A DNA stretch of 64,000 nucleotides from Escherichia coli. Its GTDB lineage: Bacteria > Pseudomonadota > Gammaproteobacteria > Enterobacterales > Enterobacteriaceae. Position 1 is the stretch's first letter. Each line of letters starts with the position of its first letter. The position numbers were made by a program, and so were the translations under genes. This document shows, piece by piece, positions 56,931 through 57,466 of the stretch. Location: NCBI RefSeq assembly GCF_003334305.1, contig NZ_QOWS01000009.1. One strand, 5' to 3'. Under the pieces are notes generated by a model. It was not told the DNA's origin and made no database searches. It was given only the letters and a program-made list of their open reading frames with translations.

Positions 56931-57070
56931 AAAAACACCCCTTCTTATGTTTGCTGTCGCGCAGGCTGGAAGCCCGAGGTTTTTTGTTAATGTGGCGGCA
57001 GAGGTAGCCGGACCTTGTAGATACTGCGAAATCTGGCACTGAATCGGTTAACTGTCCAGTCGACGGCCTT

Positions 57071-57252
57071 TTGTGTGATATCAATCACATAAATATAGGG
57101 GGTAGAGAGGTAATTGACGTGACGTTCATCACAAAACGCTTGTGTAAAAAAGCAACAAGGCGGCGATTTTCGCTAAAAATGGCATTTAAATGTGAGTAGT
57201 GTCACATTTTTGTTTTGATGGTTTGTTGAATCTTTGTGATCTGAATCACAAG
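57071..57252 (-). promoter_or_regulatory. cluster of CRP binding sites in mtlA promoter
   Basis: Three perfect TGTGA-N6-TCACA sites at 57074-57089, 57191-57206 and 57235-57250, plus a weaker one near 57278. Confidence 0.8.
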
Positions 57253-57466
57253 ATATTTTCTTACGGCGTTCACCTGATGTGATCTACAGCATGTTATGCC
57301 TTCGTCATACAATCGTTATGTAACTAAGCAACTCATCACCTCTAAAAATTATTCTTTGGTGTTATGGCGAGAATCGCGAACCCGGATTATTGTCAAAATA
57401 TCAGCCTGACTCCCTTCTGGCTGCCAGCCCAAAAACAACACTGATAAACGTGAATCCGAGGCAGAT

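Follow-up and report, generated by a model that had tools for sequence, protein, structure and literature searches.

The mtlA/yibI spacer of an Escherichia coli genome carries five CRP sites and is very probably the known operator-promoter of the mannitol operon

What regulatory unit, if any, is marked by a dense cluster of CRP sites between mtlA and its divergent neighbor yibI? The question was raised by a stretch of 64,000 nucleotides from E. coli contig NZ_QOWS01000009.1 (hereafter, the window), in which a 536-bp spacer (56931-57466) separates, as judged from the open reading frames, mtlA on the minus strand from yibI on the plus strand. A sequence-only reading of this spacer had proposed an intact mtlA promoter under multiple CRP control, sharing the region with a yibI promoter of opposite direction. 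The analysis presented here indicates that the region is, with high confidence, the mtlADR (mannitol operon) operator-promoter in the same form as in E. coli K-12, and nothing in the sequence was found to contradict this explanation. The observation is confirmed and its interpretation supported. The array is already known and the logic of its spacing was explained in 2026; since the feature is the already characterized mtl operator, it holds no novelty. Sites, scores, spacings, identity with K-12, and conservation were computed, while binding, transcription start sites (TSSs), and mutant phenotypes were taken from the literature.

An exact search for TGTGA-N6-TCACA across the entire 64-kb window returned three matches, every one of them inside the spacer (CRP5, CRP3, and CRP2 in Table 1), against 0.06 expected; three matches were reached in none of 100 shuffles. 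The proposed presence of at least three perfect sites is therefore borne out, and these are the only ones in the window. They were also said to lie within 180 bp upstream of mtlA, which is correct for their span (177 bp) but not for their distance to the gene, as 144-320 bp separate them from the ATG of mtlA (56930) and they stand at -51 to -227 from the TSS. A one-mismatch site (CRP4) and a half-consensus site matching in 7 of the 10 core bases (CRP1) complete the array, and the latter was absent from the earlier list. When up to two mismatches were allowed, no window-wide excess was observed (23 sites found, 26.9 expected, i.e., chance level), and the CRP signal therefore resides entirely in sites with zero or one mismatch. 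The scan with a position weight matrix (PWM), which had been named as the analysis that might refute the proposal, was performed with a symmetrised 16-bp matrix built from 103 CRP ChIP-seq sites of ETEC H10407 (PMC4287617 Table 1), with the four mtl/yibI entries excluded from the training set. The top four scores of the window all fall in the spacer, namely CRP2 (19.7 bits), CRP5 (18.0 bits), CRP4 (16.3 bits), and CRP3 (14.8 bits), and CRP1 ranks 15 with 10.2 bits. Four sites of at least 14.7 bits were observed, compared with a mean of 0.22 in 200 dinucleotide shuffles, and five sites of at least 10 bits lie inside 220 bp, where the same number of shuffles gave a maximum of two. The weaker fourth site of the earlier reading thus exists, with its one mismatch, but by PWM it outscores one of the perfect sites, CRP3.

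Table 1. Features of the mtl locus in the window (positions counted from the first nucleotide of the window; centers given relative to the mtlA TSS).
Feature	Position	Strand	Remarks
mtlR, repressor docking on CRP pairs	53187-53774	-	protein 194/195 identical to K-12 MtlR
mtlD, mannitol-1-phosphate 5-dehydrogenase	53774-54922	-	ORF; length equal to K-12 mtlD
mtlA, mannitol PTS enzyme IICBA	55017-56930	-	protein 637/637 identical to K-12 MtlA
mtlA 5' UTR	56931-57023	-	93 nt; TSS 57023
mtlA -10 CAGATT (assigned from TSS)	57030-57035	-	-12 to -7 from TSS; 3/6 vs TATAAT; conservation 0.97
Cra (FruR)-consensus box ACTGAATCGGTTAA	57038-57051	+	between -35 and -10
mtlA -35 TGGACA (assigned from TSS)	57053-57058	-	17 bp upstream of -10; invariant in 11 genera
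CRP5 TGTGATATCAATCACA	57074-57089	.	perfect, promoter-proximal; center -58.5; 44 bp from CRP4
CRP4 CGTGACGTTCATCACA	57118-57133	.	one mismatch; center -102.5
T-tract block TTGTTGCTTTTTTACAC / TGTTnTTTTTTTACAC	57141-57157	-	inside 73-bp CRP3-CRP4 gap
CRP3 TGTGAGTAGTGTCACA	57191-57206	.	perfect; center -175.5; 44 bp from CRP2
CRP2 TGTGATCTGAATCACA	57235-57250	.	perfect; center -219.5; highest PWM score in window
CRP1 TGTGATCTACAGCATG	57278-57293	.	weak; center -262.5
yibI 5' UTR	57399-57466	+	dRNA-seq TSS ~57399 (+/-2), 68 nt upstream of yibI ATG
yibI (DUF3302), divergent neighbor	57467-57829	+	ORF and annotation

The spacer corresponds to positions 3771745-3772280 of MG1655, with 536 of 536 bases identical, and the regulatory region is therefore intact, as had been asserted. 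Of 5426 complete E. coli genomes, 5405 carry it with an identity of at least 90%. The open reading frames and the protein identities place the array directly upstream of mtlA in the mtlA-mtlD-mtlR operon. The window itself is not MG1655, for one of the 195 MtlR residues differs and the mtlA-mtlD spacer measures 94 bp versus 229 bp; the best genome matches to the window over 12 kb reach 99.9%. This shorter mtlA-mtlD spacer (54923-55016) contains G+C-rich inverted repeats (CCCTCTCC...GGAGAGGG and GGTGAGGG...CCTCACCC), and in K-12 the transcripts starting from the mtlA TSS end within the mtlA-mtlD spacer, at 3774364/5 (SMRT-Cappable-seq, PMC6131387). Two short reading frames of the mtlA/yibI spacer were considered and rejected as coding: a 42-aa frame with a TTG start (57071-57199) does not look coding, and a 26-codon frame with an ATG start (57364-57444) contains the yibI TSS and, by eye, differs from Citrobacter through a frameshift and through changes at first and second codon positions.

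In the recent work of Lee et al. (2026, NAR; PMC13421365), the centers of CRP1-5 were placed at the distances entered in Table 1, with spacings of 43, 44, 73, and 44 bp. In the window, the centers are found at 57285.5, 57242.5, 57198.5, 57125.5, and 57081.5, giving the spacings 43/44/73/44 bp, and the published positions combined with these centers set the mtlA TSS at 57023. A TSS for b3599 was mapped by SMRT-Cappable-seq to NC_000913.3 3772188 (PMC6131387 supplement). By the conversion K12 = 3829211 - window, obtained from the alignment of the spacer to MG1655, 57023 corresponds to exactly this nucleotide; the same five positions, spacings, and TSS thus uphold the match to the known multi-CRP mtl promoter on which the earlier reading had relied. 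Under an offset of +1977 from U00096.2 to NC_000913.3, which we take to be the right conversion, the mtlA TSS found by dRNA-seq falls at 3772189 (window 57022), 1 nt from the SMRT-Cappable-seq position. Its original coordinate in U00096.2 is 3770212 (PMC4681348 Table S2). The Cappable-seq supplement of PMC4782308 contains no coordinates for the mtlA/yibI region.

From the position of the TSS we infer the -35 and -10 hexamers of Table 1, and the weak -10 fits activator dependence. A generic scan for sigma-70 promoters and terminators gave chance-level matches only and did not call the real mtlA promoter, because its -10 hexamer is weak. The box between the two hexamers agrees with the Cra consensus reportedly defined by Ramseier et al. 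in 1995, RSTGAAWCSNTHHW, of which three matches are present in the window against 0.52 expected. The mtl promoter region is described as containing a Cra site, with reported repression by Cra (PMC13421365), and the box, judging from its sequence, may be the position of that site. With a weak core promoter, CRP5 at -58.5, and CRP4 at -102.5, the arrangement is that of a class III CRP-dependent promoter, CRP5 being 3 bp away from the canonical class I position of -61.5. The mtlA 5' UTR is highly conserved between genera (0.84), and 31 of its positions are invariant; its predicted fold is not significant (z = -0.37) and essentially no covariation was detected in it. An ACCUC within the 5' UTR could pair with GGGGU of the ribosome-binding site. 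An Rfam search of 56500-58000 at a permissive threshold returned nothing, thus no known RNA element is present in the spacer; the only match of the window at gathering threshold is a JUMPstart RNA element (RF01707, 18222-18260, plus strand, 55.2 bits).

The five CRP sites of the mtl operator have been known since 1995 (Ramseier and Saier, 1995). The mtl promoter is activated by CRP and mtl expression requires it; on the chromosome, expression is lost when CRP2, CRP4, or CRP5 is mutated and slightly lowered when CRP3 is, and CRP1, which matches in 7 of 10 core bases, is poorly occupied and dispensable (PMC13421365). Two CRP ChIP-seq peaks of ETEC contain precisely the sequences of CRP2/CRP1 and of CRP5/CRP4 (PMC4287617), in genomic SELEX the mtlA/yibI spacer was the second most abundant clone class, and in a genome-wide PhyloScan analysis it was the top CRP prediction. 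For MtlR, a mechanism was presented in one 2026 paper on the basis of EMSA, AlphaFold models, and chromosomal mutants: it is a repressor without a DNA-binding domain, which docks on pairs of CRP dimers (PMC13421365). MtlR supershifted CRP-DNA complexes only when two CRP dimers were 43-46 bp apart, it bound the CRP2-3 pair in EMSA, and the pair separated by 73 bp recruited it only once shortened to 44 bp; the mtl operator was reported to be the only CRP-regulated unit of E. coli with a 43-46-bp spacing (PMC13421365). The evidence for physical binding of cAMP-CRP and MtlR thus comes from the literature (EMSA, ChIP-seq, and SELEX) and concerns identical or near-identical sequences. The adjacent pairs of the window, 43, 44, and 44 bp apart center to center, have this docking geometry, a functional meaning of the spacing that the sequence-only reading missed.

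The spacing could also be followed outside E. coli. Among 100,044 species genomes scanned for pairs of perfect CRP palindromes with centers 34-64 bp from each other, at least 120 loci with such a pair were found. Among the matches listed, 14 of 15 pairs at exactly 44 bp adjoin an mtlA homologue, lying upstream of it, and the lone exception is a Bacteroidetes MAG. Among these matches, a perfect CRP pair at this spacing is a nearly diagnostic mark of mtlA. When 13 mtlA upstream regions from other genomes were scanned with the CRP PWM, the full 43/44/73/44 bp series was found in two Enterobacter spp., Enterobacter sp. Ag1, Citrobacter, Superficieibacter, Pluralibacter, and a soil MAG, 44/73/44 bp in E. 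cloacae, a Klebsiella sp., and Pseudescherichia, 44/74/44 bp in Brenneria, a 44-bp pair in Orbaceae, and 40/44 bp in Actinobacillus. The latter, Actinobacillus sp. GY-402 (L047 4575-4674, Pasteurellaceae), has three perfect palindromes upstream of mtlA, 40 and 44 bp apart, in a more compact array. In an alignment of 11 genera, the CRP2-5 pentamers are 0.94-1.00 conserved, compared with 0.55-0.61 for the N6 and 0.52-0.69 for the inter-site spacers; both pentamers of CRP2 are invariant and those of CRP3 reach 0.99. Loci were retrieved only if they had one perfect pair, and the conservation of that pair is hence partly by construction, while the other sites and all distances were unselected. The maintenance of the 43/44/73/44 spacing across enterobacterial genera despite spacer drift is a small independent check. 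The 46-bp peak of the spacing scan was set aside as not reflecting CRP biology, since it comes from 23-bp tandem repeats with TGTGA...TCACA in a Tannerella MAG (L068-L070). A second recurrent perfect pair, 57-58 bp apart, was seen in several Enterobacterales (57 bp in L018, L008, and L088; 58 bp in L027 and L037). In L018 (3736-3808), it is flanked by a divergent MFS transporter and a KduD-like SDR, in a setting that resembles the yqcE/ygcW spacer of E. coli, while the neighbor of the 57-bp pair of L100 (Serratia) is a different transporter; as these flanking ORFs differ, the 57-58-bp pairs do not all belong to one locus.

Within the species, four divergent E. coli alleles were compared. All eight in-site substitutions are located in N6 positions (blocks 57079-57084, 57123-57128, 57196-57201, and 57283-57288); the pentamers, core promoter, and 5' UTR are free of substitutions, and indels between sites are absent. 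In this small sample of four alleles, the 30 N6 bases contain 8 of the 25 polymorphic spacer positions and the 140 bp between sites contain 6; the simplest reading of the N6 excess is relaxed constraint at N6. In one strain, E. coli GPEC1054 (L126), CRP2 and CRP1 are split by the insertion of an IS21-family element (istA/istB), which is located at the equivalent of window ~57265/57266 and cuts CRP1 and yibI off from the remaining operator. The insertion is compatible with CRP1 being dispensable.

On this basis, the working of the operator may be outlined as follows. The five cAMP-CRP sites are located upstream of a weak sigma-70 promoter with the -35 TGGACA, the -10 CAGATT, and the TSS at 57023. 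At high cAMP, CRP bound to CRP5 and CRP4, in a class I/III-type arrangement, would recruit RNA polymerase, and CRP would also occupy the far-upstream CRP2 and CRP3; expression depends on CRP2, CRP4, and CRP5. The pairs CRP1-2, CRP2-3, and CRP4-5, at 43-44 bp with the 73-bp gap between them, would provide docking places for MtlR, which is proposed to bridge two CRP dimers only at a 43-46-bp spacing and in this way to repress the mtl operon specifically. During mannitol transport, EII-Mtl would be dephosphorylated and pull MtlR to the membrane, relieving repression, and the Cra box between -35 and -10 would add further repression. The divergent yibI promoter (TSS ~57399) falls outside the CRP array, in the 144 bp next to yibI.

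Could the palindromes have come together by chance or through repeats, and lack any role in regulation? Short palindromes do arise by chance, and the window shows no excess at up to two mismatches; nevertheless, the three perfect sites against 0.06 expected, the five sites of at least 10 bits in 220 bp against a shuffle maximum of two, and pentamers kept across genera while the surrounding sequence diverged, together with ChIP-seq, SELEX, and EMSA data, leave this reading a negligible probability, and it was rejected, since the pattern of conservation and the binding data in the literature already refute it. A more serious alternative concerns the upstream sites, which might be architectural or anti-silencing, acting by DNA bending or displacement of H-NS or Lrp, with MtlR docking at CRP2-3 incidental and repression exerted only at CRP4-5. 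For activation from far upstream, both looping and anti-silencing were considered by Lee and co-workers, and the anti-silencing role was left open (PMC13421365). It also draws some support from the 73-bp gap, which is otherwise variable and contains a T-tract block conserved in 10 of 11 genera (majority fraction 0.83 versus 0.56 in the flanking spacer), suggesting that bending or a nucleoid protein matters there. This block fits G-N13-C with an A/T-rich center, which is the motif of Fis. It may be a candidate Fis site or an intrinsic bend; the accessible part of Lee et al. 2026 (PMC13421365) makes no mention of it. It is tentatively put forward, as a possibility we rate well short of even, that the block is an undescribed architectural element (a Fis site or a bend) that phases the two MtlR-docking CRP pairs and may serve remote activation from CRP2/3. 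The anti-silencing module with incidental docking appears rather improbable: in all enterobacterial loci examined, the 44-bp spacing of CRP2-CRP3 is as strictly kept as that of CRP4-CRP5, which counts against anti-silencing alone, as it does not predict such spacing, and the binding of MtlR to the CRP2-3 pair was demonstrated by EMSA (PMC13421365).

The remaining alternative assigns part of the array to yibI and requires that the divergent promoter be located. Under the same presumed offset of +1977, by which the two mtlA TSSs agree to 1 nt, a reverse-strand dRNA-seq TSS falls at about 57399. This start is listed as RVS_(II)-3769835 in U00096.2 coordinates (PMC4681348), and among the promoter-trap inserts of UTI89 that were recovered as urine-induced, one that comprises no more than -144 to +90 of yibI was active (PMC5404293). 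The TSS and the insert together set the yibI promoter at about 57322-57399, with all five CRP sites upstream of it; a promoter in the opposite direction was thus rightly expected and shares the spacer, but it does not lie among the CRP sites, a point that was overlooked. From the yibI TSS, CRP1 is at -113.5 and CRP2 at -156.5. It could be supposed that CRP1 and CRP2 mainly activate the divergent yibIH promoter, the whole being a shared bidirectional CRP-controlled unit. In the ETEC ChIP-seq table, the CRP2/CRP1 peak is assigned to yibI by proximity (PMC4287617), and the SELEX paper notes that divergent promoters are often both regulated by CRP. Moreover, a promoter-like TCTACA-19-TACAAT, listed under mtlA by Shimada 2014, is located at 57283-57313 on the yibI (plus) strand with its -35 hexamer overlapping CRP1; as a yibI promoter it was rejected, since it lies outside the active promoter-trap insert, and the entry given there for yibI, TATACA-18-TATAAT, could not be placed in the spacer even with two mismatches allowed. 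Such a shared unit is considered improbable, as neither distance from the yibI TSS is a canonical activating position, the 144-bp insert without any CRP site is still active and urine-induced (PMC5404293), and CRP2 is essential for mtl expression (PMC13421365). The spacing of the mtlA array is also kept at loci in which no yibI was detected by tblastn, several of these loci being short, and one E. coli strain has the IS21 element between CRP2 and CRP1. As a lesser reading, the array may also tune yibIH from a distance.

The preferred explanation, the operator-promoter of mtlADR, makes the locus a positive control, in which a real and experimentally validated regulatory region was recognized by the scan. 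It shares with the K-12 operator-promoter the same 536 bp, the five sites with 43/44/73/44 spacing, the TSS, and the flanking mtlA and yibI, with no difference within the spacer. The CytR-CRP system (e.g., deoP2) resembles mtl in that a repressor is held at the promoter through its contacts to a pair of CRP dimers on the DNA, with a critical distance between the CRP sites; however, CytR has its own DNA-binding domain and an operator between the CRP sites, whereas MtlR lacks such a domain and needs 43-46 bp. The CRP sites of deoP2 are ~53 bp apart and CytR-type spacing is ~52-53 bp, thus by its spacing the 43/44/73/44-bp array is not of the CytR-type CRP-bridging kind. With malK and other multi-CRP class III promoters, mtl has in common several CRP sites, a weak sigma-70 promoter, and synergy; the CRP sites of malK are, however, 34 bp apart, and MtlR is recruited there only after re-engineering to 44 bp (PMC13421365). 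The Mlc-EIIGlc system is similar to MtlR in that a dephosphorylated PTS permease pulls the repressor to the membrane on induction (PMC13421365), but Mlc binds DNA directly, whereas MtlR binds via CRP.
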